64,000 nt of DNA, taken from Cyanidioschyzon merolae. Lineage: Eukaryota. Both the position numbers and the translations under genes were made by a program. How positions within the stretch are numbered: the stretch's first letter is position 1; the number at the start of each line of letters is the position of its first letter. Shown piece after piece: positions 9,150-62,640 of this stretch. A model generated the notes under the pieces. That model had not been told where the DNA came from. It saw only the letters and a list, made by a program, of their open reading frames with translations, and ran no database searches. The DNA lies in NCBI GenBank assembly GCA_000091205.1, contig AP006485.2. One strand, 5' to 3'.

Positions 9150-9590
9150 TCGATACCTGTGCTCATTCGAAGGAATAGAGAATCCACAGGAACAGGATAG
9201 AGATGGAACAAGGGGATTCTTGGAGTTTGCCATCCCTGGTATAAACAAAAAACGAAAGAATCCTCTTCTCCGTGATCATCGAGCGAAGAAGGGCACCTGA
9301 CGCAGACGAACGCGAGGAACAGGTGCGTTCAACCAGCGACAACGAACGTGTGGAGCTCGTGATCCGACACTTTAACGTCGTCATCAATAGCAGGAGATGT
9401 ATGGCGTTGAAGACAAGACCCGAGGAGCTGTGGCCAGCGAAATCTGTGGGGCAATCTTTCGGGCTTGACGTGTGTAGCGAGAAACCAAAGCCGATAGCAG
9501 TCGATCGGTCAAAAAAGACTGGTAGGCGTCTGTGCCTGGGTATCTAGTTACACTCCCGCGTTGCGGAACATGTTCGGTACTAGTGAACTG
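9150..9590 (+). pseudogene. C-terminal fragment of a TnpB/Fanzor-like RuvC nuclease (copy A; RuvC-III region, catalytic Asp replaced)
   Basis: ORF 9272-9547 '...ELVIRHFNVVINSRRCMALKTRPEELWP...KPKPIAVDRSKKTGRRLCLGI' aligns with the RuvC-III/C-terminal tails of the copies at 20.7, 29.3 and 61.6 kb ('RMEFVNRDFNAAINTRRC...', '...GGRSKNTGRRLRVG'). Truncated upstream by the tandem array. Confidence 0.55.
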
Positions 9591-11702
9591 CGTAGATGCA
9601 GAGGAAGGAAACACGTCGATTCATGCCAGATGGTCCGCAGGGCACGAGGCGCCTCAGCGAGCGACGGAGCACACTCCTTTCAAATACGTATCGCTTTTGC
9701 CGTGGATGTCAATTGTCTTTCCATGGACTTTTCGCAAACCAATCAGCCATGCACGTGCGCTGTGCTCGTTTCCAATTAAAATGAGAGACTGGACATCGCG
9801 CCCTGTTCCTGGTTTGAGCGTTTGCCGGACTTTTTGTTCAGAAGTGCAGACTCGACATTCGAAGTTGAACAACAGGAAATGATGGATTCATATCCGGTGT
9901 TACGATTCTCGGTCGTGTTGTCGACGTTGCTCGACTGTCTCTCTCTCTCTCTCCATCTCTCTCGCTGGAATTCTTCACGTCACCGGTATCAGGATGATTT
10001 CCGACGATCTCGAAAGGCGGTTTCGCAAGATAACCGCTCTCATGATGCAATGCGCATGCCCATGCATCCATACTCGTCCTTTCCTTACATGTACTGCAGC
10101 AAAATCGCGCATGCCTCAAGTTTCCAATCCTTGTTTCTCAAGATATCTCGGGTGCGTAGCCGTGCGAGCGCCTGGATTGAGGACCAAAACTACTCCGTGT
10201 TGTCCCTTGACGACCTGTTCACAAGCTCATGCCAAAACTTTGTTGAACTCGTTATCTCAAATAATCAATTCTGTTCCAAAGACAAACCCTCGATGCCTTT
10301 ACGTCATCCCAGGACCATCATTCTGCAGCAGCACGATACCTCTACCAGGTAATGCTCCCAGAGAGACCTATCTCTTGTGTTTGCCTGGGAAAGCTACTTG
10401 GACTCGAATCTGCGTCATCGCATCGATCGCTTCCAAAGGAACGCTTGTCACCGCTGTGCACGAAGCGAACGTACATGGATCGAAAGTCCCCGACTTTGCT
10501 TTCCAGTCTGGATTTAGCTTCCCATAGATGCTTCATCATGGACAACATCACGTGCCGCAAATTATCCATCGCATGCGAAAGCGAGCACTCGCGTGTGCAG
10601 CTGACGAAGTACACTCCCGGCGGATCGCTCGGGCCAGGCCCATGATCACAGGGCATGGTGCTGGACACGGAAACATAGGAGAGCATCGAGGTGAGCTTTC
10701 TGTACCTGTCAAGAGCGTCTGCGTTGTTCTGCAGAAAGCGTGCACACGCAGCAGACCGGCGTTCGGAGTAGGATGAGGTGCTGTGGACCTCACGAGATAT
10801 TTGACCACAATTGATAGTCTCCGCTGCGAACAGCGCACTGCGGATGTACATACAAAGTAGATCAATGTGGCAAGCGAACCGTATATCGCAACTGCTATCC
10901 GTGCATGAACGACGCTGCCAAGAAAAGCAAGATAGCAAATCATGACGTGAACGCTCCCACGAGCATCCTACAACTGCTGAAACCAGAGGCGACGGAAAAA
11001 GTAGAGAGCCGCGCATTTAAGGCTGGAAACAAGAGATAAGCAGGGGAAGCAGTCACAGAAAAATTCCGCAAAGCCCGGTACTGATGACTGCGAAAAGCGA
11101 CCAGCGTTTCTCTAGATACGCCCGAGTCAGGCAAGTGCACCCGTTCCGGTGTATTCTCCTGACACGGGTGCAATTGCCGACCCGCGGCGGTGAACCTCGC
11201 AAACACATTCCTCCGTCGGACACGTTCACGCAGTCGAGGGGCTCTCGCTCGCCAGCCATCACTCTGCGAAAGTTTTGGTGATGCAGAAAGCGCTCCCAGT
11301 TACGAAACACTGCAACCACCGCGCAGACTCTGGTAACTGTGCGTCGGTCTGTTCCCGCTTATGACGCGCAAATGGCAAGGCCGTGCTCCTCCGAAACGCA
11401 ACTCGTCGTCGTGTCTCCACCTGCACGTTGGACCTCGTTTCCCAATGTTTTTCTCTGCAATTTCGGGGATGCTCACCAACCTGTCCCGGTCTGCGTCACC
11501 CTGCCGGGCTACCACGAGATACTAGGGCACATTCCGTTGGCCATTGACGTCCGCACAACCACCGGGAAGGTGCGATCGGTTCCCGCCTTGTCGTCTACGC
11601 TTCCGCTCTTTGATAGGCTCTTTTCGCCGTGCATCCTTGCAAATCGTCTTTCAGGCTTTCTATGCGGTCACACTGACGAGCGCGCCTGCCGACGTTCGGT
11701 AA

Positions 11703-11709
11703 TCCTCGT

Positions 11710-11740
<31 letters not shown>

Positions 11741-11741
11741 C
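11703..11741. repeat. (CAG)n microsatellite, ~12 units
   Basis: 'cagcagcagcagcagcagcagcagcagcagcac' is read directly from the sequence. It produces poly-Ala/poly-Gln/poly-Ser runs in spurious ORFs (11339-11884 +, 11660-12115 -). Confidence 0.9.
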
Positions 11742-16494: not shown

Positions 16495-19400
16495 AAAGCA
16501 CCGCTCATCATGCTATTGCATCACGATTCTGCTTCTTTGAATCCGGTGGAATCGGGGCTTTTTAGTAGCTCGTGCATCCTGTTTTGGTGTTGCTGTTGCT
16601 GTTGCTCCTGGGATTCTAGCTATGTCTTCGGCGCTGTAATGACTGGTTCGTGAACGGAGAACAAATGGAGTGAGCATTCGAATGACCCGAGCACATTCCC
16701 TTTCCGACAATTGGCATTGCAGGTCCTGTGAAATTTTCCACATGTGCCACTGGTCTGAAGCTATCACGTGATGCGTGAAGGCGGGACCTCGTCAACGACA
16801 TGCGAGCGTCCTTTGGGTGAATACCCGCTGATACCGCTCAGGCGTTTGCGTGTCGTGCGACTGCCAGTTATGCGGTATTCCCTGCAGCCGTGACTGCTTC
16901 TGGTACAACGCCAACAGCTGGTTCTGCCTGCGCTGTCGTTGGTCACGTCTACCATGAATGCTTGTTCACTAACTGCCCGTTCATATGCGCGTCATGCTGG
17001 AGCAACCGCCAGAGCTAGCCCTAACGTTGCTCGCGTTCGCCATGAATACTGCTTAATCACCGTTGCGTTCACTAGGACATACTGCACTAGTTACCAGCAG
17101 TGCTGCGTTGGCTGTCGCTTGCTTCCACCGCTACTTCTGCTTCAGCTTCTTCGCAATCGAGTTTGCATAGTACAGCAGCGACCGCGGGCGCTGCCCCTGC
17201 TCTCGCGAGCGTCGAGCGTGGCTGCGCTATGGGCATGTTCGCGTTCGGATGCGCGTAGTATAGCTACATCTTCTGTTGCATGCCAAACGTCGCACGGCGT
17301 CCCAGCTTCCAAAGCAACTGATACGTGATGTTTAGGAAGCATCTGGTTGGGGTACGCGTCGAACTTCGATTGCCGTATCCGTACGCTTCGTCGGCGCAGA
17401 CACAATGCGCTCCCACGGCGTCTCCGTTTTCATGGACTTCTTCTCGTTCGCCCGGGTAATGCTGCATCCTGCATAAATATGCTTGTGCCTCTGAAACTCC
17501 TAGTGCAGTCGTAGAAAATCCGGGTCAGCATGGTGTAGCATCCCCGACATCCTACAGACAACAACGAAGCACTTCATGGAGGTCTTTCTGAACCACGAAT
17601 AACGGAGTAAATGCGTCTCATGCATCCTCAGAGGATCAAGAGCATCTCCAAACAAACGTCTGGCGCTGCGCGACGTCCATCGAAGAACTCCTGCCATACG
17701 GCAAACTACACAAAAGTATGCCGATCACATCCTTCGTATTACTTTCCAGGAATCATATTCGAACGAACCCTCTAATATCTGTCGTACGATATCGGGGCTT
17801 GATGCCCGCATCGCGAGATTCTGAAGAGAAGCGAGCGCGTTGCGAGCGCACCACGGAAACAGCGCGACGGGACACGTCACCGGACAGATTATTCCATTTA
17901 TGTCGCATATCTGATATTTGCAGCACGATGCATGACGCCTGCACGCAGCGCGATTCCCGCCTGAGACACGTGTCTGGATATCCCTTCTGGCGGCAGATCG
18001 ATTTCTCTAACAGGATTCTCACCGATGCGTCGTTGCTTTCACTTACCTGGAAAATAAGCCAACGATCTTATGCATCCGGCAACACAGATCACTTCATGTA
18101 CAGAAGTTCCATCAGTGATAGAGGTTGGATTGAGATCCACGATCCTGTCTGGGTGCGGGTACCCAGCGCAGGTGCTTGTTACGACACTGGATGCGCAATC
18201 ATCGCCCCCGTCATTGCCGGTTGGAAACCGTTCGACGAGCTATTGCCTTGGCGGGAGGCGGCTCATGGTACGTGCGTTGAATGCGCTGGTGCCTCATCTA
18301 CTCCATGTCAGAATAAATTGGAACAGGTCCCCTATCTCGGGCGTACGCGCCCATGTTCAGATCTCTCCCAATTGTCATGAATACCCAGCTTTGGAAGCAT
18401 TTTCGGCGCCTGCTCCCTCATCCACGCTCTTGTCTCTGGCCTTGCATATGCCGGTCTTCCATGTCGACAGTGCTGTTGCAAGCAGTCAAGGGATGTAGGT
18501 GAAAGCGTACGAGGCCCAATTTCGCCGCCTTAGGTTGTTGTCCGAGCATACCTTGGAGAGGCGGAGGTTGCAATGTACGGATCCTTTGTGTATATACGGC
18601 ATCTGTGCGCCCTTCGCACCAGTGACACTTGGCCGTGGTCATGCGTTCGTGACTCTCGACCGCATGTTCTTCTCTGAAGCACGCCCTGTTGCGTGGTACG
18701 GCTCCAGAAGGCTCCCTTGGATGCAGTCCTGCGTTTGGGCACTTGGCTTGGCACCCCGTGATCCTAGGCTTTCACCGGGATCTCCATCCGGCGAGCTCAC
18801 TGTCCGCTGCACGCGCAAGCGCACGCTGTTCCATTTATGATGGGTTTTCGGACCTCGATTTTGTCCATAATGGCACCAGTACCGTAGGGAATATCCAGGT
18901 AGGAGAACAAGTCGAGCACTGTCGAACGGTATACGCTCTGTTCTTGCAACGCGATACTGCACCCTGCACTGGGTGAGATCGCTGTGATGACACAAGTCCG
19001 AGTCCAGGATGCTTTTCGACATTAACGGACTAGACGACAGCATCTGGGACATGTCCCGCGAGAAGCATCATGCTGGTGCTGTCGAAAGCCATGTTGTGGA
19101 TAGCCAAAAATGTAGAGGTGGATACGCCATTCGAACAATGCCTTGAAAAAAAGGTAACTTGAAGAATGCGTGATTTGAGCGATCTACAAGTTAGTAAAGA
19201 AGAGTACTGGGTGCTTGTATGTATGGATTCGATCATGATTTGGGTCATTTGGAGAACTCTTGTTCGAGGATGTCACGAATCGTCTTCATTCCGGTTTCAT
19301 CATTAATCCTAGAGGCAGGACTTCGATATGGCTTCTCTAAAAACTCCAACGCGAATCCTGAACCAACGTGCAAATCCGTAGGCTCTTTTAGCAGCACGTC

Positions 19401-20599
19401 GAGAATCGAGATTGCATACAGAGAAAGTTCGGATATCGCCAAAAAACCAGGAAAGGAGCAAGTGTTCAAGCGCTCTCTCATATTCTGACTGATGTATTGC
19501 ATGTCTCCCGAGGCGCACTCAACGCCTGTCGGTTCACCGTCGAAATGGAATGTGTTTGTAGAGTTATGCAAGCTCTCCCGGTGATGCACATGATTTGGCC
19601 CTCATGCCCGCCTCTGGTCTTTCAACTCAGTATTGTTTCACCCCTGCTGTGGTGTATGGCAGGCGATCGAAATCCCGATGCAAAGCACTGGAGAGATCGT
19701 GGACGAACTGCCTGTAGGATATGTATTCTTCATTGAACAGTTCAAGGAGGAATGCATTCCTGCTTCCAGTCGGTCATACCGTAGTTCTCAGATAGTTGGC
19801 GAGCGACGACAGAAATAAGCTTAGAGGATCCGCCCCAAAACTGGTATTGACAAAGACTGCCTGCAGTCGATGGTAGATAACGACCCGTTGATCACGTTAC
19901 GGAAAGCAAAAGCGACTCTAGCAGACACATCGGCATGTCTGTGTGTCAACAGCTAGTTGGTGCCGTCCTGAAATCGCTCGGATACCGTCGCAAAAACAGA
20001 GTCCTAGTTCATTCACGGCCATCTTCCATTGAAGTCGCAACGACAGCCTTCTTCCTGGAACGTCGCGATCGGTATGATCCAAAAAGACGTCGGTTCGTTT
20101 TTCCACTCGATGAGACATGTTACGGAAGAAACGGTCAGAGCGTATATGTGTGTTCGCAGAAATGTCCCGTAGTGTGCACTATCGAGCTCGAAGAGATCTA
20201 TGACATCATCATCTGATCTAGCTGCAGTGGATTCCATTTGCGGCCTCAGTTCTTTTCTCTCGTAGAGAAGGCTCATACAACAGCACCCTCTTTTTGTCGA
20301 GTCATCGAAGACTGTTCCCCTGGTGTCTGGCGACGTCCTCCTATTAAAGGACATGTTATTTCACTATTCGCGTTACGGTCGAGCTGTTGCAGACTGTATT
20401 GGTTAGAGCTGGTTTCATTCCTCCGTACTCTGCGTCGTTCAATTCCGTCGAAGGAGCGTTTTCCATCGTGAGACGTAATGATCGTTTCACTGAGCGAATT
20501 GATGAAGCATTCAGCACACGGTGACATACCGGGGCTTTTTTTCTTTCTGCCTCAATTGCTGCTCGATGCGGGAAGGTCCTTATCTCTGGCTATAAACAA

Positions 20600-21045
20600 G
20601 TGCGTTCATTTTCGAAAACCACTAAGAGATGAGCTTGGATATATACTCTAGGACGTCGAGTTGTAGAGAGAGGGATGCGCAGGGCTTCTGCGATAGACTA
20701 ATACGGAGAGCTGGCAGAGCACCAAGTTCCAATGAGGACGCGAGTTCGAGGAATCCCTGCACTGGTGAGAACAACAAGACGCATCAAACGCATGGAGGTT
20801 ATGAAGCGAAACTTCGATGCCACCGTCAACGTCAGACGATGCTTGGTGCTGAAGACGATACCCGAGGAGCTGACGCGATCTACCCCTGTGGGATGGCGTC
20901 TCAGGCTCGAAATTTGCAAGGAGAAACTGAAACAGATAGCAGACGGCGGGTCAATCAAAACCGGGAGGCGTCTGCGGGCCGGTATCAATTTACCTTCCAT
21001 GCTCGTGGGACATTTTTTGTTTCACTGACATGCAAAGTCACCGTT
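20600..21045 (+). pseudogene. C-terminal fragment of a TnpB/Fanzor-like nuclease (copy B) with an in-frame stop and a mutated RuvC-III Asp
   Basis: Frame containing '...TLGRRVVERGMRRASAID*YGELAEHQVPMRTRVRGIPALVRTTRRIKRMEVMKRNFDATVNVRRCLVLKTIPEELTRS...KLKQIADGGSIKTGRRLRAG' is collinear with copy D ('CTLQTVVLEGSQRGASAIEKYGELKQHQMALKARVRGQLALVSSTRGYKRMEFANQDSNAAINIRKC...'). The TAA stop at 20699-20701 replaces a Lys codon. Confidence 0.6.
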
Positions 21046-21569
21046 AGCTAGCAGGCGCTATGCATCAGTAGCTATAGACATGCAGGGGCTACTCCTAAGA
21101 AAGTTCTGGCGCCGAAGATCCAACTTGCAGTCTATTGCGTACCAGTGCAGAGGCCACACGATGACCAGAGTCTTCTGTTACGCCGAGGCTGACGATCATC
21201 GTGTTTTATATTGCAAATACCTTTGAGCCGGTTCCAACGGACGAACTTGACACAAACTCGATAGGCGCCGCTGCATACACTGATTCGTCGAGAGCCCCGT
21301 GAGGCGCGTTCCTCACGAGCCAGCATTGCGGCAGGTTTCGTCCAGAGCGTCCACCATCAAACTCTATCACTGACCATGAAGACGGGCTTACATAAGTTCA
21401 TCGATACCTCGTTTTCTCAAGCTACGGAAGGAACAAGCTGGAAACGAAAGCGTAACGGTTCGAGGTCAGCGCATGCCCGGCAGTGAACACTTCCCAGCAA
21501 GCAGCGAACACAGCGACGCGTTCAGGCAACGTCTGCGACAGGTCTTGAAGAAAACGGTACCGATCGATG

Positions 21570-23819: not shown

Positions 23820-23860
23820 AACCCTTCGGTGGGAGCTGCTCTTCTGCACCACCGAAGCCT

Positions 23861-26304: not shown

Positions 26305-27289
26305 AGAAAGGCAAGAAGAGCGTTGTTTCTAGGCAAACGTAGTGCTGAACGTCGACGGCAGACCGGATTGGTTTGGCGATTTCTCACACAATCACGAAAC
26401 GTTTCCATGAACCGTAGACCCCAGAATGCGGGATGGATGGGTATTGGTAATCGAAAAAAAGTGCACATCATGCTACTGCACCAAGTTCTATTATTCATAC
26501 TTGCTTTCGAATGTGCTGGTCGTTTCGTATGTTCTATCGCGCGCCGAGTGCCTGCTGTGAGCAGCCGCCTTAGCGCCTAGACCGCTGGAACAGATGCATC
26601 ATGGAGACAAGACGGCTTTGCCGTACCAGTGAGGGCGTCGGATCGAGGAACGCTTCACCTGATACGGAGCCGGAGTACATGGTCATTCTGGGCGCTTGCA
26701 AGCTGCGCAGACAGAACGACTGCCTGCAGAAGCTCGAAGCGATATGCTAGGAGTCTACTGCGACCAGCGCGATGCTCAGAAGCAGCCGAACCGCCGCTAG
26801 TCCCAGAATGAAGTGTGTTGCGGACGAGCTGCTCAGATCTCATTACAACATCCTCCACTTTAGAGGCACACGGAGCATGAGCCACGCAGACTCGTCCGGC
26901 TTGCGGGACCTTCCGCCTGTATGGTAAAATTTTCGAAATGCGGATAGCGCTCCCCCATGCAACGTTTACCATATAGAGGAGAAGAACCTGTCCTATCGTT
27001 GTTATTTAATGGTTCGTTTCTGTTCATGGTTCTGTATAGCATATTCGATACGCGCACCTCCATGTCTGGCAGGCATGAGATGCGGCGCGCGTTTCGCAGT
27101 GGAAGAGAAACGCGATCCTCATCGTTATCATGTTGCTCTAAAGTACAAGGTGTCTTTGCGTTGCAGTCGTACCGAACCATAGATTTCAATTCAGTTGTTT
27201 TTCAACCCTCAAGCAAGTATATTCAAGTGATTTCTCGCGGTTTATAGCTGAAGCGTTCAACGTGTGTTCATTTTCAAAAAATAAAAAAG

Positions 27290-29480
27290 GGAAGTTAGCG
27301 AAAAGCAAGTTGAGGATCCCGAAGGGCTTGTGCCGCCGGCTGCCAGAAGAATAAAAAGCATGGCGGAGCAAAGAGCAACAGGAAAAGACGAAGAAGCAAG
27401 AGAAGGAGGCCCTACGCCAAAGGCTGCAAGAAAGACGACACTGCGACGGAATGGTGCTGGAAGCCTGTCTTCTTGGACATATTAATGATCCATACTAGGA
27501 AAAGTTGCGAGAGGCCATCAGAAACCGGACCGAGTCGTTCTCCAGGAGGATTATAAAGTCTTCGTCAGGGCTAATGCATTTGGTGAAGGATATGTACGAA
27601 GACGTGACGGACATCAAAAAAGTCGAGATTGCAGAAGAATTTTGCGACCAGGCCTTTATTCCTCACCTGATGCTTGGCACCGGGGAAACGTCGACGAAAA
27701 ATGAGCGAGTGTATGCCTTCCATGAAAATCACTCCGAATTCCGCTTCGACGGTACTCGACACATGCCTGACTCGAATATTTACACGTACGGAGCAATGGA
27801 GGGCCTCACGAACCTGAAGAACCATATGATCGTGAACCTCGAACGTTTCATGATACGCACCATGTTTGCGCTGAACCCCGGCCTTTCTCGCCAGTGGATA
27901 CGGGCCATCATCAATGGCATCAAGAACGCTCGCCAGAATGGACAGGAGATCGAATTCGTCGACAAAAAGACATCACACAGGAGCATGAATAATGCTTCTG
28001 TAATTCGTGCGGCTATTCAAGAGCATCGTGCGGTCTTGGGGCTTGTCAAATCCAGCTTAAACGGTATCAGATATGAAAAGAAAATGAAGAGAAACGGTAT
28101 ACCCTCGTACTGTAGTATTCCGTGTTTCTGAACAGAGACCTCGAACGCAAGGCGGAGATCGAGCAGAGTGTGAGGAGAAAAATGAAGAGTCAGCGAAACG
28201 GAACGCTGCCCTAATGGGTAAGCGCTTCAATGTCGTTCCGCTATGCAACATCGAGTCAAATGTTGTGACAGTTGGCCCGCTACGTACTTTACAGCAAAAT
28301 GAAGGAGATCTATCCGGACTTCGATGTAAGCAGCAACGAGTTTACGGGCGAAAACCGGGAGACGTACTGGGTGAATATGTTCGATTTCAAACGTCTGAAA
28401 ACGAGCAAACAAAAGTTATTTACTGAGGTGATCGAAGCCGATGGAGCAGCCGTGTGTGTACACGATCGGCGCTTGAAAGTGGATCGTCCCATTGCATCTT
28501 CATGCTTCGCCGTCGGCGAGGCATAAAGAAAAAGAGGAGGCGGATCCTGCGACGCATGCGGTGCAGGATAAAGACTTTGTTGTTGGCGCGGACCCTACGA
28601 ACACGAATATTGTTACCGTCGCTGTACCCAAACATGCGGAAGATGGTATCAACGGCAACTTCAGAAACACATGCGTCTGTTGAGGCTCTCAAGAGCTAGA
28701 GGTTACCGAGAATGCGGTATAATGAATGCGAGGAAAAAAATTGAGAAGTGGAATGCAGGAATGAAGGATCGCCTGGAAGCTATGAGGGAGGTGACGAGCC
28801 GAGAAGCGGGCTTTGAAGCTTTTATGAAATTCATGGAAGTTCGCGTGGCTCACTGGGAGGCGCTGTGGAAAGAGAATACAAAGCCCCAGTGGGCTCGTCT
28901 ACGTATGAACCTGTACCGTAACAAGTAGCATGCATTCGCGAATTTTTTCAATGAGTTGAGTGCCCTGAAGGAGGACGAGAGACAGAGGCTCGTAATAGCA
29001 TGCGGAGCAGGGCGCTGGAAGACCCAAAAAAGCGAGTGGACCAGCTCCAACGACGATGGTGTACAAGTAGTGCGCAACGCGTTTCATTACGATACCTGTA
29101 GATGAGTTTCGAGCATCGTATACGCACCATGAACTGGGATGCACACTTCAGAGAGTGGAGATGGAAAAGTGTCAGAGAAGACCTTGGGATACAGAGAAGT
29201 GCGGAGAGCTGACAGAGCAGCAAACGTAAAGAACGGCGAAAGTTCGTGGACTCCATGCATTAGTAAGTACAACCAACGGCAAGCAACGTATGGAGTTTGT
29301 GAATCGCGACTTTAACGCAGCAATCAATACCAGGAGATGTGCGGTGATGGAAAGAAGACCTCCGGAGTTGACAAGAGAGAATTTTATGGACAACCTTCTA
29401 CGATGGAATTAGATGAGGAAAGTTGAAACCAGTAGTAGGTGGCCGGTCGAGAAAAACCGACAAGGCGTCTGCACGTCGCC
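27290..29480 (+). mobile_element. Most complete copy (C) of a TnpB/Fanzor-like RuvC-nuclease element; coding region is fragmented (pseudogene)
   Basis: AT-richer block in a GC-rich region. Collinear frames 27505-28131, 28272-28526, 28492-28683, 28671-28928 and 29030-29400. RuvC-I-like 'FVVGADPTNTNIVTVAV' lies at ~28576-28625 and RuvC-III 'RMEFVNRDFNAAINTRRC' at ~29290-29340; between them is a C-rich segment 'ELGCTLQRVEMEKCQRRPWDTEKCGEL' (possible zinc-finger remnant). Several frameshifts/stops split the reading frame. K/R-rich N-terminal peptide 'KAARKTTLRR' at ~27360. Confidence 0.65.
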
Positions 29481-30247
29481 CTAAAGGCTTCCACGCTATC
29501 GGCGTGACGTATGTGCGTTCGTATACCCGTTTTCCGGGTGGCAGTTCCCGCGCACAACGTTTCGCTTGTAGCGCCGCGACTCGAATGCCGCGGTACACGA
29601 TACGGAGTCTACTCGTGTTGGGTTGTGCTTCTTTTGCTATTTACCAAACATCGGCTTCGAAGTATGAGCCTGATGGTCGCGAAAGTATAAGATCGACTCG
29701 ACAAGCGCCCGAAAGAGGGCACAGGACGCGAGCGTCACCTGAACCAGCGAACCACAGAACCGGACAGGGAGCGATCTTGTCTGCTTTGCTGAGCACTAGT
29801 ACTGAGGGCACGTTATCGAGTGCAACGAACAGTGTAGAAGGACTGCGTATTGGTCTTACGAATCAAACGGAGGCTGCTCTTGCCAGCGTTACGCCCGTGC
29901 TGCAGCCTGATGCTGCGGAACTCGAGAACGCGTGCACTTTTCAAGCACCAGAGTTGAGCGCCTTGTCCGGAACGTCAAGTCTCATGGAAGACCTGAGCAC
30001 TGGAGCGGACTCAGTTGCCGGCACTGACAATGACAGTGATCGTTCAGAACAGATGACGCGAAACAAAATTAGAGACCGCTCGTGGTCGTTGTATCGTCAC
30101 CTGATGGATCCACCAGTTGCATCGGAGGTAGGCGTTGCAACTCCCCGTTTGCGTCGCCGCATTGGGCCGAATCCGCAGGCAGTAGGAGTCAACCCCCTTG
30201 ACTCAAGCGGCGAACGTAACGAATGCAGGGCGATGGCTCCGTCCTGA
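29423..30247 (+). CDS. Hypothetical Ser/Thr/Ala-rich ORF (274 aa); its first ~25 codons overlap the frameshifted tail of the Fanzor-like copy C
   Basis: ORF only. The start region 'KPVVGGRSRKTDKASARRPKG' is homologous to the C-terminal tails of the other Fanzor-like copies ('KLKPIAGGRSKNTGRRLRVG'), so the 5' part is element-derived. No recognisable domain. Confidence 0.2.
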   Translation: MKPVVGGRSRKTDKASARRPKGFHAIGVTYVRSYTRFPGGSSRAQRFACSAATRMPRYTIRSLLVLGCASFAIYQTSASKYEPDGRESIRSTRQAPERGHRTRASPEPANHRTGQGAILSALLSTSTEGTLSSATNSVEGLRIGLTNQTEAALASVTPVLQPDAAELENACTFQAPELSALSGTSSLMEDLSTGADSVAGTDNDSDRSEQMTRNKIRDRSWSLYRHLMDPPVASEVGVATPRLRRRIGPNPQAVGVNPLDSSGERNECRAMAPS

Positions 30248-31017: not shown

Positions 31018-31145
31018 TCGATTTTTTTTTCATTGACAAAACGTTTCCATTGGCCAGCGTTCTCCGATTATGCGCATTTTCCTTTTCTTACTTTTTTGTG
31101 TTATTTTTTCAGTGCACTGTGAAGTATCTATCAAACACCCTACCT
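31018..31145 (-). repeat. Diverged, inverted dispersed copy of the 135-bp repeat unit
   Basis: The reverse complement of 31028-31125 ('cttcacagtgcactgaaaaaataacacaaaaaagtaagaaaaggaaaatgcgcataatcggagaacgctggccaatggaaacgttttgtcaatga') aligns with the tandem unit core 'cgcgcactgaaaaaaaaagtaagaagagaaaaagcgcacaatcggataacgctggacaaagtaaacgtttattcagtga'. Confidence 0.75.
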
Positions 31146-31331
31146 CCATGTTCCATTACCTATACTTCGTCTCGGATATTCTGGACGTTTCATACGTCCT
31201 ATCGTGCGTGGGATCGATGCTGTGCATCCGCGGCTCGCCCGCGAATGAAGCGCGATCACGACGCGCGCATCTCATGTCCGTTTTGATCAAACGGCTATAT
31301 ATATCAGATTTGACGAATTTTCGGTGGCATT

Positions 31332-31424
31332 GCGGACGTGTCCGAGTGGTTAAGGAGAACGATTAGAAAGCGCCTAGATATCGTTTGGGCTCTGCCCGCA
31401 CAGGTTCGAATCCTGTCGTCCGCG
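31332..31424 (+). tRNA. tRNA-Ser (anticodon AGA) with an ~11-nt intron 3' of position 37
   Basis: GCGGACG/CGTCCGC acceptor stem with discriminator G. D-loop 'GAGTGGTTAAGG', anticodon stem AACGA/TCGTT, loop T-T-AGA-A then the extra 'AGCGCCTAGAT'. Long variable arm GGGC-TCT-GCCC. T-arm 'ACAGGTTCGAATCCTGT'. TATATATA lies ~35 bp upstream. Confidence 0.8.
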
Positions 31425-33599: not shown

Positions 33600-33760
33600 A
33601 AGAGGTTTAATTCATGTAACTTGGACGAAGAGGGTTTGATGGATACCTCACCGTGCACTGGAAAAGAAAAGAAAAGAAAGAGCGCATCATCTGAGAACGC
33701 TGGCCTAAGTAAACGTTTTGTCAATGAACGTGAAAAATCGCTTGGGGCACCGCCCTGCAC
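33600..33760 (+). repeat. Diverged dispersed copy of the 135-bp repeat unit, overlapping the predicted 5' end of the downstream ORF
   Basis: 'ggtttgatggatacctcaccgtgcactggaaaagaaaagaaaagaaagagcgcatcatctgagaacgctggcctaagtaaacgttttgtcaatgaacgtgaaaaatcg' aligns with the tandem unit at ~70-75% identity. Confidence 0.75.
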
Positions 33761-39122: not shown

Positions 39123-39275
39123 AGCACGCGCTGCGACGCTACCCTACACCCGTGTCAGGTGAAAGGAGCATACTAAAGTGCTCGGTGTTCCTGGATATCG
39201 ATTTTGTCTGAAAGCTTTTTGGTTTGTGGAATATGTATTCTACCATTGTAACAGGAAGGGCATGAGGTTTCATAT

Positions 39276-40484
39276 GTAATTAAGGGATTCTCGGCCGTCT
39301 TTTCTGACATGCTTGTTCGACGCTCTGCCGTCGAAACGCAGGGAGGCTCGGGAGCCAAGACGATTTGCAACGAAATCGAGCTAGGGCTGGTAAAACAAGC
39401 GTTAGCACGATTTAATGCATACATACAAGCCTTTTGCATGTGCGTACCCTTCCGTGCAGCACGCTCGATTCACGCATGCTTCCAGTTTTCGACCGCTCTG
39501 TTTCAGGGCTGCTCGTGCGCGCACCAATACCTACTGCGTATGCGGCTCGGCGAAGTGCTCAACGCCATCTCTTGACGGGCTGTTCGCAAACTCGTGCCGA
39601 ACACTCACCGGACCTGTCATCTTCAGATGATCATCGATTTCGTTCGATAGACAAACTCGCACCTCGTACCCGCCATCGACGAGGCGTCATTCCGCAGCAG
39701 CTGCATATCCCGCACGGAATATGCTCACAGAAGCGCTCCCGTCTCTTCGGGTGCATCGAAGGGCGTCACGGAGTCGGACGTTGGTCGTCGCTGCGATGGA
39801 TTTCATAGGAGAGCGCGTACACGCTTTTCAGTGGGAAGGCGTCGGGCGGTCGAAGTCCTGCGACTTGTCCTCCAGCCAGGGGACTCGCTCCGGTGTATTT
39901 TGCATCGCGGATAGCATTGCATTCCAGAAACCCTCGATCGATTGGAACGTCGTTCGCCTGCGTGTCCAGCGCGCAGAGTACTCGCTGAGCGGACAGCGCA
40001 GAAGACGCCCCTAGTCGCAGGGTACGCCAACAGGCGCTGAAACGTGTGATGGCATGCGAGGGAAGCTTTCCTCGCCCGTCGAGTGCATATACCTATGCGA
40101 TGAAGCGTACCCTCCGGAGCCTCAGGGCGGTTCTCCGCGGAGGAGGTTTGGTCGACATATAGGACAACGCAACCAGGCACCAGTCGCATATCTGGAAGAA
40201 GGTGCGTCGACGCAGTGTACAACGAACGTGAGAGTGGAAAGCGATGCGTAGGACACAACCAGCGCCTGCACATGAAATGCGTCGCTCTTTGCTGCAATCG
40301 GTGAACTCGTGGCTTGAATGGTGCCAGCACCACCGTTGGACGGCTTCCAAGAGAGCTGGAGGAAAAACATGAACCATTGTATGTAAAGCCGAAGATAAGA
40401 GAGAGAGAGACAGAGTAGGGAAGCAGTCGCAGAGGAAGCCAGCAAAGGCTGGTGTCGTTGACAATTGGAAGAGACCCAAACTTT
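39276..40484 (+). repeat. 1,209-bp direct repeat, copy 1 (~99.5% identical to 48089-49297)
   Basis: Base-for-base alignment with copy 2 at a constant offset of 8,813 bp; only a handful of mismatches. Boundaries are defined by abrupt loss of identity ('catat|gtaatt...aaacttt|agaacg'). The ORFs on it (39309-39575, 39434-39808, 39803-40591) are duplicated verbatim and have no recognisable domains. Confidence 0.9.
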
Positions 40485-47714: not shown

Positions 47715-48088
47715 CAAGTATTTGCTCGGCTCGCAAAGCACGTATTCTTGTCTGATCTAGCCTATCACGCAGCATTGCCCGAGCTCACAGAACGATTCAG
47801 TCTTGGGCGTCGGCACAAAGCATCGCCTCGAGAGCATGCGTTGGAACGCCACGTCGCTTGCGTACTCGACGAAAAGATGAAGTCGCTTGTCCTTCGCCCC
47901 ATCAGCAATGCCATGCCACAAATGGACACGTCATTTCCACAGGCAGAGCGCGTTACCTGCCACAAAGACGCAATTCTTGATCCTGCTATACATGCATTGA
48001 ACTCCACAGTACTCGGGTATTTCGAGAATAAAGTAGTTGGAAGGAGACATGTGGGCGACATGCATTGCAGCACATTTCGTATTCTTAC

Positions 48089-49297
48089 GTAATTTAGGGA
48101 TTCTCGGCCGTCTTTTCTGACATGCTTGTTCGACGCTCTGCCGTCGAAACGCAGGGAGGCTCGGGAGCCAAGACGATTTGCAACGAAATCGAGCTAGGGC
48201 TGGTAAAACAAGCGTTAGCACGATTCAATGCATACATACAAGCCTTTTGCATGTGCGTACCCTTCCGTGCAGCACGCTCGATTCACGCATGCTTCCAGTT
48301 TTCGACCGCTCTGTTTCAGGGCTGCTCGTGCGCGCACCAATACCTACTGCGTATGCGGCTCGGCGAAGTGCTCAACGCCATCTCTTGACGGGCTGTTCGC
48401 AAACTCGTGCCGAACACTCACCGGACCTGTCATCTTCAGATGATCATCGATTTCGTTCGATAGACAAACTCGCACCTCGTACCCGCCATCGACGAGGCGT
48501 CATTCCGCAGCAGCTGCATATCCCGCACGGAATATGCTCACAGAAGCGCTCCCGTCTCTTCGGGTGCATCGAAGGGCGTCACGGAGTCGGACGTTGGTCG
48601 TCGCTGCGATGGATTTCATAGGAGAGCGCGTACACGCTTTTCAGTGGGAAGGCGTCGGGCGGTCGAAGTCCTGCGACTTGTCCTCCAGCCAGGGGACTCG
48701 CTCCGGTGTATTTTGCATCGCGGATAGCATTGCATTCCAGAAACCCTCGATCGATTGGAACGTCGTTCGCCTGCGTGTCCAGCGCGCAGAGTACTCGCTG
48801 AGCGGACAGCGCAGAAGACGCCCCTAGTCGCAGGGTACGCCAACAGGCGCTGAAACGTGTGAGGGCATGCGAGGGATGCTTTCCTCGCCCGTCGAGTGCA
48901 TATACCTATGCGATGAAGCGTACCCTCCGGAGCCTCAGGGCGGTTCTCCGCGGAGGAGGTTTGGTCGACATATAGGACAACGCAACCAGGGACCAGTCGC
49001 ATATCTGGAAGAAGGTGCGTCGACGCAGTGTACAACGAACGTGAGAGTGGAAAGCGATGCGTAGGACACAACCAGCGCCTGCACATGAAATGCGTCGCTC
49101 TTTGCTGCAATCGGTGAACTCGTGGCTTGAATGGTGCCAGCACCACCGTTGGACGGCTTCCAAGAGAGCTGGAGGAAAAACATGAACCATTGTATGTAAA
49201 GCCGAAGATAAGAGAGAGAGAGACAGAGTAGGGAAGCAGTCGCAGAGGAAGCCAGCAAAGGCTGGTGTCGTTGACAATTGGAAGAGACCCAAACTTT
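48089..49297 (+). repeat. 1,209-bp direct repeat, copy 2
   Basis: See copy 1. Identical except for a few substitutions (e.g. 'gattcaatgc' vs 'gatttaatgc'; 'gtgagggcatgcgagggatgc' vs 'gtgatggcatgcgagggaagc'). Confidence 0.9.
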
Positions 49298-50231: not shown

Positions 50232-50731
50232 TTTTTGACATTTTTCGTGTGCTGTGGCATTCAAGAATCCATGTCTCTTCAACGCAACGAGCCGCGCATC
50301 CACGTCTCAGTGAACCCATGCTTTCCCGGACGAAGATATCCATCGCACAGTCTGGGATCCCTGGCCTGTTGAAATGCTCTGTCAAACAACACCGTGCGCT
50401 AGCCTCTCATCCGAGAGTCACTTTGTTCCATTGCACGCGCACACTTGACTCGCCCTGAGGCAGCTGCTGTGTGCGGCTATGTTGCGGCGTCATAAACGCG
50501 CTTCATGCGACATCTCTCCTCGTGGCAATCATTCAACAGCAATAGCGTTTGTTTGTATCGCAGAAAGCGTTTCAAACAGATTCTAGTGACTTATGGACGC
50601 CAGGAGCACCCTATATCTCGGATGCATAGAGCCTTATGTATCTAGGAATGCGCTGCAGTGCCTGCTTCTTGTACCAGCTGGGTGGTGATCGCGAATATCA
50701 GAGCACTACGGGACACTTTTGGGGACGCGGC

Positions 50732-52204: not shown

Positions 52205-55200
52205 GTTTTATTTCTGATCATGTACCTGGAGGGTGAGCAAATCATCGTTTCCCATTACTTCGAAGGTCAATACGGCTGCCGTTTTTATATTATCTGTAGC
52301 TGATTCAGCGCAACGAGCCGGGAAACGTTTGAGATGCTCTGTTACAACACCGCATCCGGTTCGTATTTGCTGGGAACACAGTAATATAGAATCGTGGAAC
52401 AACGATACCGTTCATCAATCGCAAAGAAGCATCATTTTCATTGTGTGTATACGTGTGTATGGTTATCCAGCGTTTCTGGATCGCTGACGGTACCATTCAA
52501 TTGTCATTTTTGATCAGCGTTTTTATGCTGCGTCCTCTTGCTTTGGACTTGCGGCGACCGCCATCATGCCTTTCAGCTCGGACCGATGAACACCTTGGAT
52601 TCCTTCTCTTCATCCGCCTTGAACGGTTCGAAATGTTTGTCGCTGCTCAACTGAGGCATACGTTTCATGAAATACATGTAGACTGATATACCATCGTGCT
52701 CACTTGTCCGTTTAGTCATCACTTCAGTTCCGCCGCGCGCACGAGAATCCTTGAACCAGTGCCGCCAATGTTCACAGCGAAGTTGTACGCATACTGCATA
52801 CCTGATCGCCGAGACCAGCAGTTGTTCAAAGAGCACGTGATGATATACAGTACGCAAGTGTCTACAGTGACATGTCGAAATGTACCATGGGAATTTGGAC
52901 AGGTGGCAGCCCTGCGCCCGGCACTCCTACAAACAGTTGCTCGACGAATTGCTTCAAGTCGAGGAAAGCTACGCGAAACATCCCAAAGCGAAAGGCTACG
53001 CGATCCCGAATGACGTTCAGCATCTCACGGTACGGAAGTTTCTCCCTGCCAGTGTGTTTCAGTGCCCAAACGACGATAACATTTTGAGATGGAATTTTTT
53101 GCCAGAACAGTTTCTCGTTCGCCGCCCTTCTTGTCCTCTGTTCCGGCGGATTTGAACCTTCTTTGTCTTGTGGATTCTTCTCCTTCTCTGCTACTTGGTG
53201 CAGTACCATGTCTACGTTCACTGGACTCTGCGTGTGCTTTCTTCCGCGGCAGTGAGAAGGCTCTGGTGGACGGTGGTGCTCAAATACGCATTCTCGATGT
53301 ATACATCTATTCTGCCTTACGTATCTTCTCGTCATATTCTCCGTGGTGAGCATGCCCACAGGCCGAGGCGAGCATTCCTTCACCTGTCCGGGCAAGAGCA
53401 CACAAGCTACAAAGCAGTTCAGGGCTGGTGAATGTAGAACAAGATTTGTGGAAAATGACACGCTGGAGAACGGTGTCATGGATGTGAACGGATCCACGAT
53501 CGATACGTGAGCGTAAAAATAGTTTTGACGACATAGAATACTCCTTCTACTGGACTGCACAGCGGAGATTACAGTGGAATGAAAAGCAGGCCAACGTCAG
53601 AGTCAGCCCCGCAATACTTGACCGTCTTTGAGTGCTGGAAAGCGACTTTGCCGTTGGGCATGATAGAAGAATGTGCGACAGTGAAGCCACTCAGTAGCTC
53701 TACGATGGATGAGGCTTTGAACGATTCGGTCTTTTGGGCGATTTGTGGTCGACTAGAGGATCGAATCGCAGCCAGGGCTGATGTTTTCGGAGTTCTCGTG
53801 CGTGCCTCCTGTGCGATTCGTATTGTCGGCTCTTCGAATGCCCGTGTACAAGTCCACCATATCTCCCGAACAATGTGTCATCAAGTGAGACGAACACAAG
53901 TCCGTCCAGCTATAAGCGTTCGCGTTTCCGCATAAGACCAATCAAGTACTCTTGGACGCACCACTGTCCAGTACAGAACCGTTTTTACTGCGTTATCCAT
54001 CGGTGTCTGTTCAGTACTGTTCTTATTAACCGAACGCAAATATGGCATCCTGTGGCCACCTCGGTAGTCTTCCGTAGAGTACGCCTGCAATGAAAGGTAT
54101 TGACGATGAGAAAGTCTTACAACAAGAGTCCAATTAGTTCTGCTTTGTGCGTATGTAGCATAGGATAAGGTCTTCGAGAACTTGAGCTCATTCACCATCT
54201 AACGGTAGGATGACTGATTTGAGTACGGAAATCCGTTTTTCGCGAAGTATGACTGACGTCTTAAAGTGCTTCTACGATATTTCTTTAATCTTTGGGACGC
54301 ATCTTTTTTTACTGGTTACAAGCGAGAGAAAAAACAAAAGCATAAAGAGCGTGCTCGTTAAGATGTTCTAAAATGCGCTGCTATGACTATCAAGTCCTGC
54401 GGTTTCTCAGCGTCTGTGTGGGAAACACACAAATTGAAAAAAAAGTGCAGTGCTAGTTGTGCAGGAGCATGCCCGGACTTGAGTATGGGTAATGCTTTTG
54501 TCGAGAAAGACAGATACGCTATTTGCCTGTTGTACGCAAGCCACATCCGGTACTGTAGGCGACAAGAAATGTAGAAACACATTTGGAGTTCGTTTGAACT
54601 TCATTGCACAACTCCAACCGACTTCTTCCTAACAAGCTGAATGGTTTTATCACCGGCATGGTGGATCAGCCTCGACTGAGCGACTCGCAAACGGATTTGG
54701 TACAGATTCGTTCACTGGAGAAACTGTCTCTTCGCTAGACGCATTATGTTCACGTTGCTGCATTTATGTATGCAATTTCACGTCCATACCCATAGCAGGG
54801 TTACTTGAGGAAGAGTCTGTTACCCAGATGGCTGGCTGCCGCCCACATGAACCCAGGGTAAGGCTCTCGATGTTGTAGGGTCGATGCAGAACTCCCCGCA
54901 TTCCTCGAGAGACACGACTGTGGCCGACAAGGAACGAATCCGCAGAAGTTGTCGCAAGCGCATGCGTTTTGCTGTTGCGTTGCTGTCCAAAGTATGCGTC
55001 CCGCCCTGTCCGCAGGGCGCTTGGACGCAGAGGGCCGCGTGCAGCTGCCTTGCCCATTGAAAGGTCCTGTCGGAAGCAGAAAAACTACTAAAATTTAGCG
55101 CGCTTCAATCCTGTCAGCTTCAGAAAAAAAAGCGACCGCAACCTGCATCGCAAGAGGTCGCCGCCAGGAGAACCGGCGAGCCTCATATCCCCCGTACTTC

Positions 55201-55346
55201 GCAGTGGAAATTCGCTGTTCGAGGCTGCGACACCGCTGGCACGACTCAGATAACTTCTGCAAAGCCATTATCTCCTGTCGAGATCTATGCTATAGCAGGT
55301 GCTCGAAGCGCCTCCGAGCGCTCACTAGAGCACAATCTTTCGCTTT

Positions 55347-56489: not shown

Positions 56490-56749
56490 GTAAACCGAAC
56501 CAATAACGCTTCTTCACGCGCCGCATCAACATGCGGGACTGCATTGTATGCAGTTTCGCACCGCTCAGCTTCTCTGTCGCAGCAGGCATGATCCCTCTGT
56601 CTCACTGCACGGGCTTTCTCTGTTCCACGACCTCAATAGGTGCCTGCCGGAACCTCTTTTGTTTGGGAAACAGGGTGCCCTTTTTACAAAATCGGTGCAG
56701 CGGCCAGGAGCGCCGTCCTCAAAGAAAACGAGCGAGTTGCTATCGTGTG

Positions 56750-60195: not shown

Positions 60196-60206
60196 GCTTC
60201 CTAGAA

Positions 60207-61316
60207 ATGCCCTTAAACTACTACTTCCGAGTAGAGATAGACGATAGTAGTGAGAGCAGCCAGGCTTCTCTTCAGGGTAGAGTCGAGCGTAAAGCTGCAG
60301 AGATCGAACAACGGCTGGAGAGCGTCTGGGGCTCCTGTTTCTGCGGAAGTTTCGAAGTAAGTTGTCACAAATACGCGCGTTCCGGCGAAATCTACCGGCA
60401 TCAGAGCGATATTAAGGACGTGCAACGCGAGTTGCCTGCTCTTGAGGCCTTTTACACTTTATCCGTACAACCGAGTGGTGTTTTCGCAGATCCCGTCATA
60501 GATGCCTTCGCCAGCGCTTCAGGCGCCTTGGACGGGGTTCGGCGGTCCTCGCTTGGAACAAAGCGGAACTATGCAGTTTCGCTAATCCCGACTTCTACCG
60601 AAACAGCAAAACGTGAGGGGCATAGCTTCGAACTTGCTGTTTTGGAGTGTGCGGAGAACTTCCCGGGATTCATGGAACAGTACACTGCTTCGCTTCCGCA
60701 GCGACCTCATGGCCCAGGAGACGCACAGAAAAATCTCTGGCAGATACGTATGACGAGGAGCGCCAGCATTTTCGAGTACCGCATAGAGGTAGAAAAGGAT
60801 GCTTTAGGCCCGCTCTTCTCAAGGGAGGGAAATCCGCCGTTCAGAGTTGGTCACTCGCGCCCTGAAGAAGCATGCCACCGTAGCACATGGGGCGCATCGT
60901 GTGATCATCTTCAGAGAAGCGACCTTTTCATTGCCATGATCCGCATGATATTAACTTACGAACGGCCGAGGGAGTCGGGTCGGGCATCCAGCCTTTTTAT
61001 TGAGCTGGAGATCCCGTCCCCGGAACAGGGAACCAGCTCCGGGGCTGGTCAGAAATGCGATGATATTTCGCCCGCTCCACGTCTTTGTGCCGATGGCTCT
61101 CTGGAACATCGATTCCTTAAGGCTTTCATAGATAGCATGTTACCCACACGCCTCGTCGAGTATCAGTCTACACTGCAGCTTTGTTCTCTTCGCAGAAAAT
61201 TCGCCCGCGTGCTGCTCGACTTCAAGATTGTCGATGGGAGTCATGAACTGCCCCCAGACGTGGGTCGTCCTACGCCTCTTCGCATCGCAATGTGCTGGCA
61301 GATGCTATTCAGCTAA
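60207..61316 (+). CDS. Hypothetical protein (369 aa)
   Basis: Long ORF with host-like composition and no recognisable motif. Confidence 0.25.
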   Translation: MPLNYYFRVEIDDSSESSQASLQGRVERKAAEIEQRLESVWGSCFCGSFEVSCHKYARSGEIYRHQSDIKDVQRELPALEAFYTLSVQPSGVFADPVIDAFASASGALDGVRRSSLGTKRNYAVSLIPTSTETAKREGHSFELAVLECAENFPGFMEQYTASLPQRPHGPGDAQKNLWQIRMTRSASIFEYRIEVEKDALGPLFSREGNPPFRVGHSRPEEACHRSTWGASCDHLQRSDLFIAMIRMILTYERPRESGRASSLFIELEIPSPEQGTSSGAGQKCDDISPAPRLCADGSLEHRFLKAFIDSMLPTRLVEYQSTLQLCSLRRKFARVLLDFKIVDGSHELPPDVGRPTPLRIAMCWQMLFS

Positions 61317-61429
61317 AAACTCGACGATGAACATTGACGATGGCATCGACGTGTCTCGATGCCTTTGCGGCAGCTAGTGGCACTCGAGATTGGCGTACTG
61401 GTCGCTTCCCATATCGAACATACACTCAC

Positions 61430-62640
61430 TATCAGTGAAACAAGAATCTTTTCACGACCATGGAGGGTAAATATATCTACCCACGCGCAGACGCCTCCCA
61501 GTGTTTTTTGACCGGCCTCCTGCTATAGGTTTGAGTTTCTCCTTGTACACTTCGAGCAGCAGAGGCTGGCCCACAAAGTTCGCTCTTGTCAACTCCGCGG
61601 GTCTCTTCTCCGGCACCAAACATTTCCTGATATTGATAGCAGCGTTGGAGTCCTGGTTCGCGAATTCCATGCGTTTATAGCCTCTGGTTGAACTCACCAA
61701 TGCAAGCTGTCCTCGAACTCGCGCCTTCAGAGCCATTTGGTGCTGCTTCAGCTCTCCGTACTTTTCTATCGCCGAAGCGCCCCGCTGGCTGCCCTCCAGC
61801 ACGACCGTCTGAAGTGTACACCCAAGCTCACCCCCTGGATTTTTTACTTTTGAACATGGAAGCGCATCTTCGAGGCCTAGGGTGGGGACCTTCCCGAAGC
61901 GAGAAGGTCTTGTGGAAGAAAGTCGACATGTGCCCCCAGGCTCACCGTGTACTGAATGTTTCAGCGATTCGCCCAGTGGAGTGATCATTACTTTTCAGAA
62001 TACAAAAGACTCCTTCTATGGGGATGAAACACAGAGTCTTCCGAGTAATGAAAAGCAGCTTTGCCCCGACAGAATTCGCATAAACTCGAACGCGTATGGG
62101 CTCGCGAAATGCCATGTCGTTCAATAGTAGAAAGTTGCCGGATGTAAGAGGAAAAGTCTTCAATGATTCGACAAATTGGGTGCTGTTGTATGAACCTTCT
62201 TTACGAGCGGAACTGAGGCCGCCGAAGGAATGCATTCCAGCTTGAACAGATGATGATACCCATGTTCTCTTCAAGCTCGATCGTGCATTCCACGGGCTGC
62301 CTGCTCTACGAATACCAATATACGCCTCGACTGTTTCATTCGAAGCAAGTCTCATCCACTAAAATAACAAACTGACGCTCCTCTGCTTTATTAGCCTCGC
62401 GAAGTACCAGGAACACCGTCGTTAAAATATCGGTGGAAGATGGCCCTGAATGGGATTGGACTTTTTTCGACTGTATCTAGTGATTGCATGACCGCAAGAA
62501 CATACTGTTCAGAAACAGAAACGCCCGTGGTGGCAACTACCTCGCTTTTGCTGCCTGCAATGTGATCAACGAGTCGCCTTCTAATACTCACCCGCAAGCG
62601 GTCTTTGAGAATCCCGGTTTTCGGCAATGAGCGCATCTAT
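61430..62640 (-). pseudogene. TnpB/Fanzor-like RuvC nuclease copy D (3' half is one 178-aa ORF with intact RuvC-III Asp; upstream frames are broken)
   Basis: ORF 61452-61988 '...LGCTLQTVVLEGSQRGASAIEKYGELKQHQMALKARVRGQLALVSSTRGYKRMEFANQDSNAAINIRKCLVPEKRPAELTRANF...KLKPIAGGRSKNTGRRLRVG'. Upstream ORFs 61942-62355 and 62391-62636 are in other frames. ~75% nt identity to copy C over the RuvC-III region. Confidence 0.6.

Follow-up and report, generated by a model that had tools for sequence, protein, structure and literature searches.

The window analysed here is a stretch of 64,000 nt from chromosome 3 of the red alga Cyanidioschyzon merolae 10D (GenBank contig AP006485.2), in which sequences related to Fanzor proteins recur. 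Eight of its ten long open reading frames (ORFs) were on record: seven were exact matches to annotated 10D proteins within BAM79029-BAM79048, and the eighth fell into a common cluster with the shorter 10D annotation BAM79047. The long unbroken ORFs and the G+C content of 0.54 are explained by the compact, intron-poor genome of this alga. A preliminary description of the same DNA had recognised four diverged copies of one Fanzor-like family (here copies A to D), and motif mapping returned its coordinates, its quoted motifs and a TAA codon at 20699-20701 just as it had given them. All four copies exist, but two further relics, E and F, had been overlooked (Table 1). The six relics together make up ~15% of the window. 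No intact Fanzor ORF was found in the window: copy C is broken, copies A, B and D are fragments, and relic E is spread over several frames.

Table 1. Fanzor-related relics and the associated tandem array in the window (positions are those of the whole stretch).
Feature	Position	Strand	Description
Relic E	11..1565	+	Fanzor1 pseudogene of a divergent lineage, truncated at the window start
Tandem array	8367..9050	no strand	Tandem Repeats Finder (TRF), 136 bp x 5.1, 96-97% matches
Copy A	9121..9595	+	Relic of an L007-type deletion derivative
Copy B	19612..21046	+	Complete internal-deletion derivative: DDE_3 transposase relic and Fanzor tail
Copy C	26391..29477	+	CMe-1A element, nearly full length
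Relic F	52576..54110 (approximate)	-	Decayed DDE_3 transposase and faint, tentative traces of a Fanzor N-terminus
Copy D	61420..62845	-	Complete internal-deletion derivative: DDE_3 transposase relic and Fanzor tail

The recurring segments belong to the published CMe-1/CMe-1A family of Fanzor1 sequences, and the observation as such was already known. In the paper that defined Fanzor proteins (Bao and Jurka 2013, Mobile DNA 4:12; PMC3627910), CMe-1A is a C. merolae repeat of ~150 copies, each ~80% identical to a 3,169-bp consensus, which encodes a 734-aa Fanzor1; some intact CMe-1 copies are said there to exist. CMe-1A was reported to have no transposase and no terminal inverted repeats (TIRs), with undetermined target duplications and an unknown classification, and to have its 5' 635 bp in common with a second repeat, TE-N2_CMe. 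The consensus DNA and the CMe-1 protein were taken from the supplements of that paper and mapped onto the window by blastn and tblastn. Copy C corresponded to consensus positions 3-3089 with 82.9% identity, in keeping with the published copy-to-consensus identity, and was the only copy collinear with CMe-1A including the TE-N2_CMe-like 5' region. In C, this region is followed by a Fanzor1 pseudogene (~27297-29488) with all three catalytic residues (D/E/D), located in RuvC-I ('VVGADPTNTN', 28579-28608), RuvC-II ('VDEFRAS', 29098-29118) and RuvC-III ('RDFNAAIN', 29305-29328). The ORF around them is broken by 12 indel events relative to the consensus ORF, 11 of them frameshifting, and by 7 stop codons. 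A stitched conceptual translation of C retrieved 57 metagenome homologues (best E = 6e-224). TE-N2_CMe-like 5' fragments (consensus ~24-257, 73-90% identity) also occurred away from Fanzor sequence, at 31139-31208 (+), 33456-33625 (-) and 50320-50364 (-).

Within the consensus, the tail of copy D matched positions ~2738-3088 (76.6%), that of B 2799-3084 (66.9%) and that of A 2871-3083 (68.5%). Straight after '...GGAGGCGTCTGC' the 3' terminus of these three copies departs from CMe-1A, and they carry a DDE_3 transposase relic or another internal deletion. With matches confined to consensus ~2738-3088 and a 3' terminus of another kind, A, B and D do not qualify as CMe-1A elements. In a comparison of the window with itself, B (19619-21028) and D (62837-61432) were 68.5% identical over 1,434 nt (E = 4e-138), C (29130-29476) and D 69.6% (E = 8e-34), and A (9322-9556) and D 70.9% (E = 1e-25); A and B shared 66.1%. 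The four segments are thus homologous beyond chance, at pairwise nucleotide identities of 66-71%, lower than the 70-75% claimed earlier. The tails lie where the preliminary description had placed them, but it had underrated the extent of homology: B and D are collinear over ~1.4 kb, not 0.45 kb, and C spans 3.1 kb, not 0.5 kb. It had also proposed that these are old insertions and not recent duplicates, which agrees with the divergence of the paralogues set against 99.1-99.4% identity of B and D to orthologous copies in metagenome contigs (see below). The opposite reading, that the segments arose by recent segmental duplication or that a short motif recurs by chance, has the common motif and nothing else in its favour. 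It can be given practically no weight, as the flanks are unrelated, the E-values reach 4e-138 and orthologous insertions persist at 99% identity in related strains. Extended collinearity was present, and recent segmental duplication is excluded.

Copies B and D share ~1.1 kb upstream of their Fanzor tails, the translation of which contains 'LDETC(F/Y)', 'EKEGSYNST' and 'PPYS..N.VEG.FS'. In B, the relic of this upstream gene runs from an ATG at 19678 to ~20545 ('PLDETCY', 'PPYSASFNSVEGAFS') and is followed by the Fanzor tail at 20645-20977 (CMe-1 aa 616-727) and a 3' terminus '...TTTGTTTCACTGA' at 21016-21028. In D, it runs from an ATG at 62778 to ~61895 ('LVDETCF', 'LLLNDMAF', 'IPIEGVF'); the Fanzor tail (CMe-1 aa ~582/610-729) lies inside an open 178-codon frame (61988-61452), and the 3' terminus reads '...TTGTTTCACTGA' at 61443-61432. 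The 3' terminus common to the deletion derivatives, '...GGGTAT.TATTTAC.CTCCATGGTCGTGAAA..TTTGTTTCACTGA', is unlike that of CMe-1A. BLASTP of the B and D relics against the mariner transposase of PUl-1, an element of Pythium ultimum, gave just a 20-residue match ('PPYS..N.VE'), so an intermediate sequence was needed. A two-sequence profile of the stitched B and D proteins matched a single entry among 5.8 billion proteins, the metagenome protein P0172 (E = 2e-15, coverage 97%). P0172 contains an N-terminal helix-turn-helix and a Pfam DDE_3 domain (5e-26), and proved homologous to the transposase of PUl-1 (29% identity, E = 1e-22). By hand count, 34 residues separate its 'LLDN' and 'NPIE' motifs, a DD34E spacing. 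Both B and D keep 'LDETC' and '(I/V)EG', and the second Asp is left in D only. The transposase genes of both copies have decayed, with a longest ORF of at most 137 aa.

On the contig of P0172, a CMe-1-like Fanzor1 gene begins 54 bp after the transposase (30% identity, E = 1e-45). A scan of metagenome contigs with the transposase alignment yielded 40 loci that fell into three groups by layout. The first consists of pairs of an intact transposase and a CMe-1-like Fanzor1, on contigs with a G+C content of 0.36-0.65. In the second, on three Cyanidioschyzon-like contigs (L009, L010, L031), a decayed transposase precedes a full-length CMe-1 gene, and homology to the CMe-1A consensus begins at position 876, just ahead of the start codon. 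In the third, a decayed transposase precedes the Fanzor tail alone. This last group includes orthologues of D (L004, L005; 99.4% identical) and of B (L023, L033; 99.1%), i.e. the insertions are fixed in related strains. In the CMe-1 genes of L001, L002 and L009, a 75-78-bp unit (consensus 2117-2196) directly upstream of RuvC-I was also repeated in frame, with one to three additional copies. Its translation is approximately 'KHEEKKEADPATQEVQENDFVV', and the number of units varies from one gene copy to another.

Three loci (L017, L018, L019; contig G+C 0.46) are 98-99% identical copies of a 3.64-kb element in at least two flanking contexts. Both of its genes are intact; they encode a DDE_3 transposase of 289 aa and a Fanzor1 of 699 aa that has no zinc ribbon. 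Homology among the copies ends at the same bases, where an imperfect TIR of ~32 nt is found (TATACTC...TGGAACACC; reached by 2-3 of 1000 shuffles for L018 and L019), and a TA stands beside each end (..T|TATACTC...GAGTATA|..), compatible with a TA duplication. TIRs of this length with an adjacent TA are as expected for a Tc1/mariner-type element, and the element looks like a recently active transposon of another microbial eukaryote. The same two-gene order, a mariner-type transposase followed by a Fanzor1, is found in PUl-1, and TIRs and TA target duplications have been reported for PUl-1-type elements (PMC3627910). The transposase of L019 is homologous to that of PUl-1 (28% identity, E = 3e-19). 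The two systems differ in that the Fanzor of PUl-1 has a zinc ribbon ('TCSCC...LRCTNSKC' in the published sequence), whereas the CMe-1 clade is without the CxxC...CxxC pattern; moreover, the window copies, unlike PUl-1, have decayed and suffered internal deletions, and neither TIRs nor target-site duplications can be demonstrated in them.

Copy A represents a second deletion variant, which also occurs on Cyanidioschyzon-like contigs (L007, L008, L025). It consists of a Fanzor 5' remnant (9121-9310, approximately consensus 837-966), the tail (9323-9546) and a short 3' terminal stretch, and it aligned with the metagenome variants in two collinear blastn blocks of 69.5-70.2% and 71.3%. The first ~55 Fanzor codons (9163-9310) and the tail are kept, and the transposase part is missing. 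The 136-bp array sits where that part would be, which makes the earlier proposal that copy A was truncated by the array plausible. The proposal is consistent with the layout but unproven, as the array ends ~70 bp before the first recognisable base of A (9121). Units related to the array were also observed beside TE-N2_CMe-like fragments at 33613-33735 (+) and 31029-31153 (-), one of them shortly before position 33816, where the TFIIS-like gene BAM79038 is annotated to begin. On two Cyanidioschyzon-like metagenome contigs (L013, L015) the unit occurred in tandem at ~5.3-5.8 kb and 10.2-10.7 kb.

Relic E, directly upstream of an aminopeptidase P gene, is a fifth Fanzor1 pseudogene and belongs to a divergent lineage. 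By tblastn it matched aa 160-678 of the intact L017 Fanzor in several frames (E = 9e-41), and it is ~33% identical to CMe-1 aa 425-690. A degenerate RuvC-I ('FVVSMALVPTN', 769-801), RuvC-II ('VDEVRMT', 1296-1316) and RuvC-III ('RDENISIS', 1500-1523) could be recognised. In relic F, the transposase part (54110-53503, minus strand; 'VSLDDTLFGRYGG', 'CSPVEGVFYVVK') was detected with P0172 in two frames (tblastn, E = 1e-13). The Fanzor part of F is tentative, consisting of weak matches to the N-terminus at 53149-52576, which are collinear and lie on the expected strand (E = 2e-4 to 0.04).

The preliminary description had drawn attention to the RuvC-III Asp, kept in C and D and gone from A and B. 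Motif mapping bore this out: D reads QDSNAAIN (61655-61632), A RHFNVVIN (9365-9388) and B RNFDATVN (20807-20830). The TGRRL tail was seen in A, B and D, and the TAA codon of B stands, as proposed, where the family consensus has Lys ('EKYG' in the consensus, 'D*YG' in B). No special meaning attaches to the lost Asp. Of the catalytic triad, D keeps the RuvC-III residue alone, and A and B are without both the RuvC-I region and the RuvC-III Asp; the ORF of C, in which the triad is complete, is broken. Mismatches between B and D at codon positions 1, 2 and 3 of the open frame of D amounted to 0.312, 0.285 and 0.322, and such near-equal values imply neutral decay. As A and B have no RuvC-I either and the pattern of substitution looks neutral, the missing RuvC-III Asp is functionally meaningless in these copies and is one neutral change among many. 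The tail module common to all four copies, together with the distribution of the Asp, could suggest four equivalent copies of one Fanzor-like gene, two of which specifically lost the Asp and became dead but meaningful variants. We regard this as very improbable, because A, B and D hold only the last 80-150 codons without RuvC-I, C is full of frameshifts and stops, the B/D substitutions are uniform across codon positions, and the copies have three different architectures (C; B and D; A). The copies thus belong to one family by homology, as first described, but they are not equivalent.

The open frame of D could alternatively be read as a Fanzor tail that the host has domesticated, either as a small protein or as a regulatory gene. 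Metagenome gene callers report it as a 178-aa hypothetical protein with 29 near-identical cluster members. The frame is, however, absent from the NCBI annotation of the C. merolae 10D reference, and its counterpart in B contains stops. D differs from its orthologues by 3-4 substitutions within the frame, all of them nonsynonymous and at the same rate as in the adjacent dead transposase relic. With divergence below 1%, chance alone would leave a frame open, and we consider domestication still less credible than the equivalence of the four copies.

The Fanzor1 identity of the family, and with it the Fanzor label of the preliminary description, was upheld by the match to the CMe-1A consensus and by a profile built from CMe-1 and twelve homologues. 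The sole sequence in the PDB matched by this profile was SpuFz1 of Spizellomyces punctatus (E = 1.4e-5 over 348 positions), which is represented by 8GKH and six other entries. In the alignment of CMe-1 with SpuFz1, 'GADPGN' corresponds to 'VIDPNK', 'VDEFRTS' to 'LDEYKTS' and 'NRDFNAA' to 'NRDMLST'; more generally, the RuvC-I DPG, RuvC-II DE(F/Y)(R/K)TS and RuvC-III RD motifs of SpuFz1 (8GKH, 9CEU-9CEZ) and GtFz1 (9CER) align with CMe-1. Nonetheless, identity to CMe-1 is merely ~14-15%, and the window copies, unlike these proteins, are pseudogenes. The catalytic D/E/D is kept in the family consensus and in the intact relatives. A Foldseek search with the AlphaFold model of a homologue (P0001) placed SpuFz and GtFz, the Fanzor of Guillardia theta, as the top three and only credible matches (probability 0.99-1.00, E = 3e-3 to 8e-2); as the model is poor in its nuclease half (mean pLDDT, the predicted local distance difference test score, 48.5; RuvC half below 50), these fold matches count as weak support. 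Direct searches gave no match: neither phmmer of CMe-1 against the PDB nor Pfam on the single ORFs and the stitched proteins, including OrfB_Zn_ribbon and OrfB_IS605. Bacterial TnpB (IS200/IS605, IS607) and Fanzor2 belong, according to the literature, to a common RuvC-nuclease superfamily by descent. The CMe-1 profile reached no TnpB, Fanzor2 or Cas12 chain in the PDB even at E <= 10. A Fanzor2 or TnpB identity was thus not supported, and the associated transposase is DDE_3 and not TnpA.

Taken together, it is very probable that A-F are fixed, neutrally decaying relics of DNA transposons that carried CMe-1-lineage Fanzor1 genes, with a mariner-type two-gene element as progenitor. That progenitor was most likely of the Tc1/mariner-IS630 type, with a DD34E (DDE_3) transposase gene followed by a Fanzor1 gene. 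The transposase would have cut and pasted the element, and the Fanzor1, by analogy with characterised Fanzor1 and TnpB proteins, would have been a passenger with RNA-guided RuvC nuclease activity. In C, the transposase end may have been replaced by the TE-N2_CMe-like 5' region. B and D would derive from one internal deletion that joined the transposase end to the last 125-150 Fanzor codons, and A from another that kept the first ~55 and last ~80 codons. Such deletions would have given non-autonomous derivatives with both ends kept. No window copy can encode a nuclease or a transposase today.

Several observations weigh against this interpretation. TIRs could not be demonstrated in B and D, where the best inverted match was reached by 149-159 of 500 shuffles, nor was the TIR search significant in the related locus L006. 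No TA target duplication was demonstrable in the window copies; by eye, D reads CT-TA-CAGAC...GAGTG-TA-TG, with boundaries that are not independently fixed. For this reason, mariner-type mobility of the window copies would rest on their relatives and on what is known of Tc1/mariner elements. None of the Cyanidioschyzon-like contigs found carried an intact transposase. The deletion breakpoint in B and D is uncertain by ~30 codons, as the Fanzor match begins, in another frame, before the C-terminus of the transposase is reached. When the copies were compared with the CMe-1A consensus, the ratio of nonsynonymous to synonymous substitution rates (dN/dS) was 0.43-0.54, not 1, and the third position was only mildly enriched. 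This divergence is not purely neutral; we attribute the low ratio to selection that acted before insertion, while the lineages were still active. The Fanzor motif D-X-[TS][TS]-X-X-[C4]-X-RD includes a C4 finger (PMC3627910), yet CMe-1 and its 11 aligned relatives are without both CxxC pairs ('TSYTHHELGC...', 'GLLALVSTT'). Both are present in SpuFz1, the zinc-ribbon cysteines of which ('CPRCSS', 'CTNPNC') have no counterpart in CMe-1. Absence of the C4 zinc ribbon is a clade-level deviation, and the Fanzor1 label was kept because the authors of the family included CMe-1, in addition to the profile and fold matches.

Finally, no guide RNA of the Fanzor type (ωRNA) was detected: Rfam returned no match, and in two elements (L019 and L009) the 3'-most 300 nt folded no better than their shuffles (z = +1.09 and -0.35). 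This result also bears on a reading in which the 3' 300-450 bp were indispensable in cis: they would have served as the right transposon end, perhaps also as an ωRNA template, and the derivatives would have been non-coding parasites of the Fanzor and transposase machinery. Two independent deletion variants indeed keep the same 3' end. Characterised TnpB and Fanzor elements encode their guide RNA at the 3' end, and by analogy the retained tails might have had such a role. A hairpin-like GTGAAAC...GTTTCAC was recognised by eye at the 3' terminus of D, L006 and B, in B with G-U pairs only. Apart from the missing Rfam match and thermodynamic signal, the tail is no better conserved between B and D than the transposase part. 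Retention of both ends is common to all cut-and-paste deletion derivatives and can be explained without an RNA role. We consider such a cis requirement unlikely, though less so than the other alternatives, and prefer the interpretation of A-F as relics of mariner-type elements and their internally deleted derivatives.

Three further features of the window were recorded. A 1,216-bp direct repeat (39269-40484 and 48082-49297; 99.4% identity, ~8.8 kb apart) flanks CMC113C and a gene with an ERCC4 domain. Neither its ORFs nor the neighbouring ORFs had a Pfam match, and nothing in it resembled the Fanzor elements. Its appearance is that of a segment duplicated recently or of a young repeat. A 93-nt tRNA gene at 31332-31424 (+) was found by Rfam (48 bits) and missed by ARAGORN, which suggests that it is intron-containing or otherwise unusual. 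Such tRNA genes occur in C. merolae. A repeat family of low identity was represented by 10197-10553 and 32057-32412 (67% nucleotide identity) and by 18518-19057 and 32792-32208 (~30% amino acid identity); the family as a whole is unrelated to the Fanzor and transposase queries.

As originally posed, the finding carries little weight, since a published repeat family was rediscovered and the lost active-site residue is pseudogene noise. What the analysis adds is modest: the transposase link, two deletion architectures, relics E and F, and the clade-wide absence of the zinc ribbon. If the ~150 published CMe-1A copies are spread over the C. merolae genome, which we take to be ~16.5 Mb, ~0.6 would be expected per 64 kb. 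The only CMe-1A element proper in the window is C, and half of the regional Fanzor-like signal consists of internally deleted transposase-plus-tail elements that are not CMe-1A. No link of the C. merolae CMe-1 family to a mariner-type transposase was found in the searchable literature. Tentatively, CMe-1A may derive from a widespread lineage of elements with a DD34E (DDE_3) transposase and a zinc-ribbon-less Fanzor1, intact and recently active in other microbial eukaryotes and present in Cyanidioschyzon in a full-length and at least two internally deleted, non-autonomous forms. This would give a family listed as unclassified a plausible place in the Tc1/mariner-IS630 superfamily. The clade is without the zinc ribbon that is usually taken as a hallmark of TnpB and Fanzor proteins; if its members are still RNA-guided nucleases, they may represent a structurally reduced branch of Fanzor1 worth testing.

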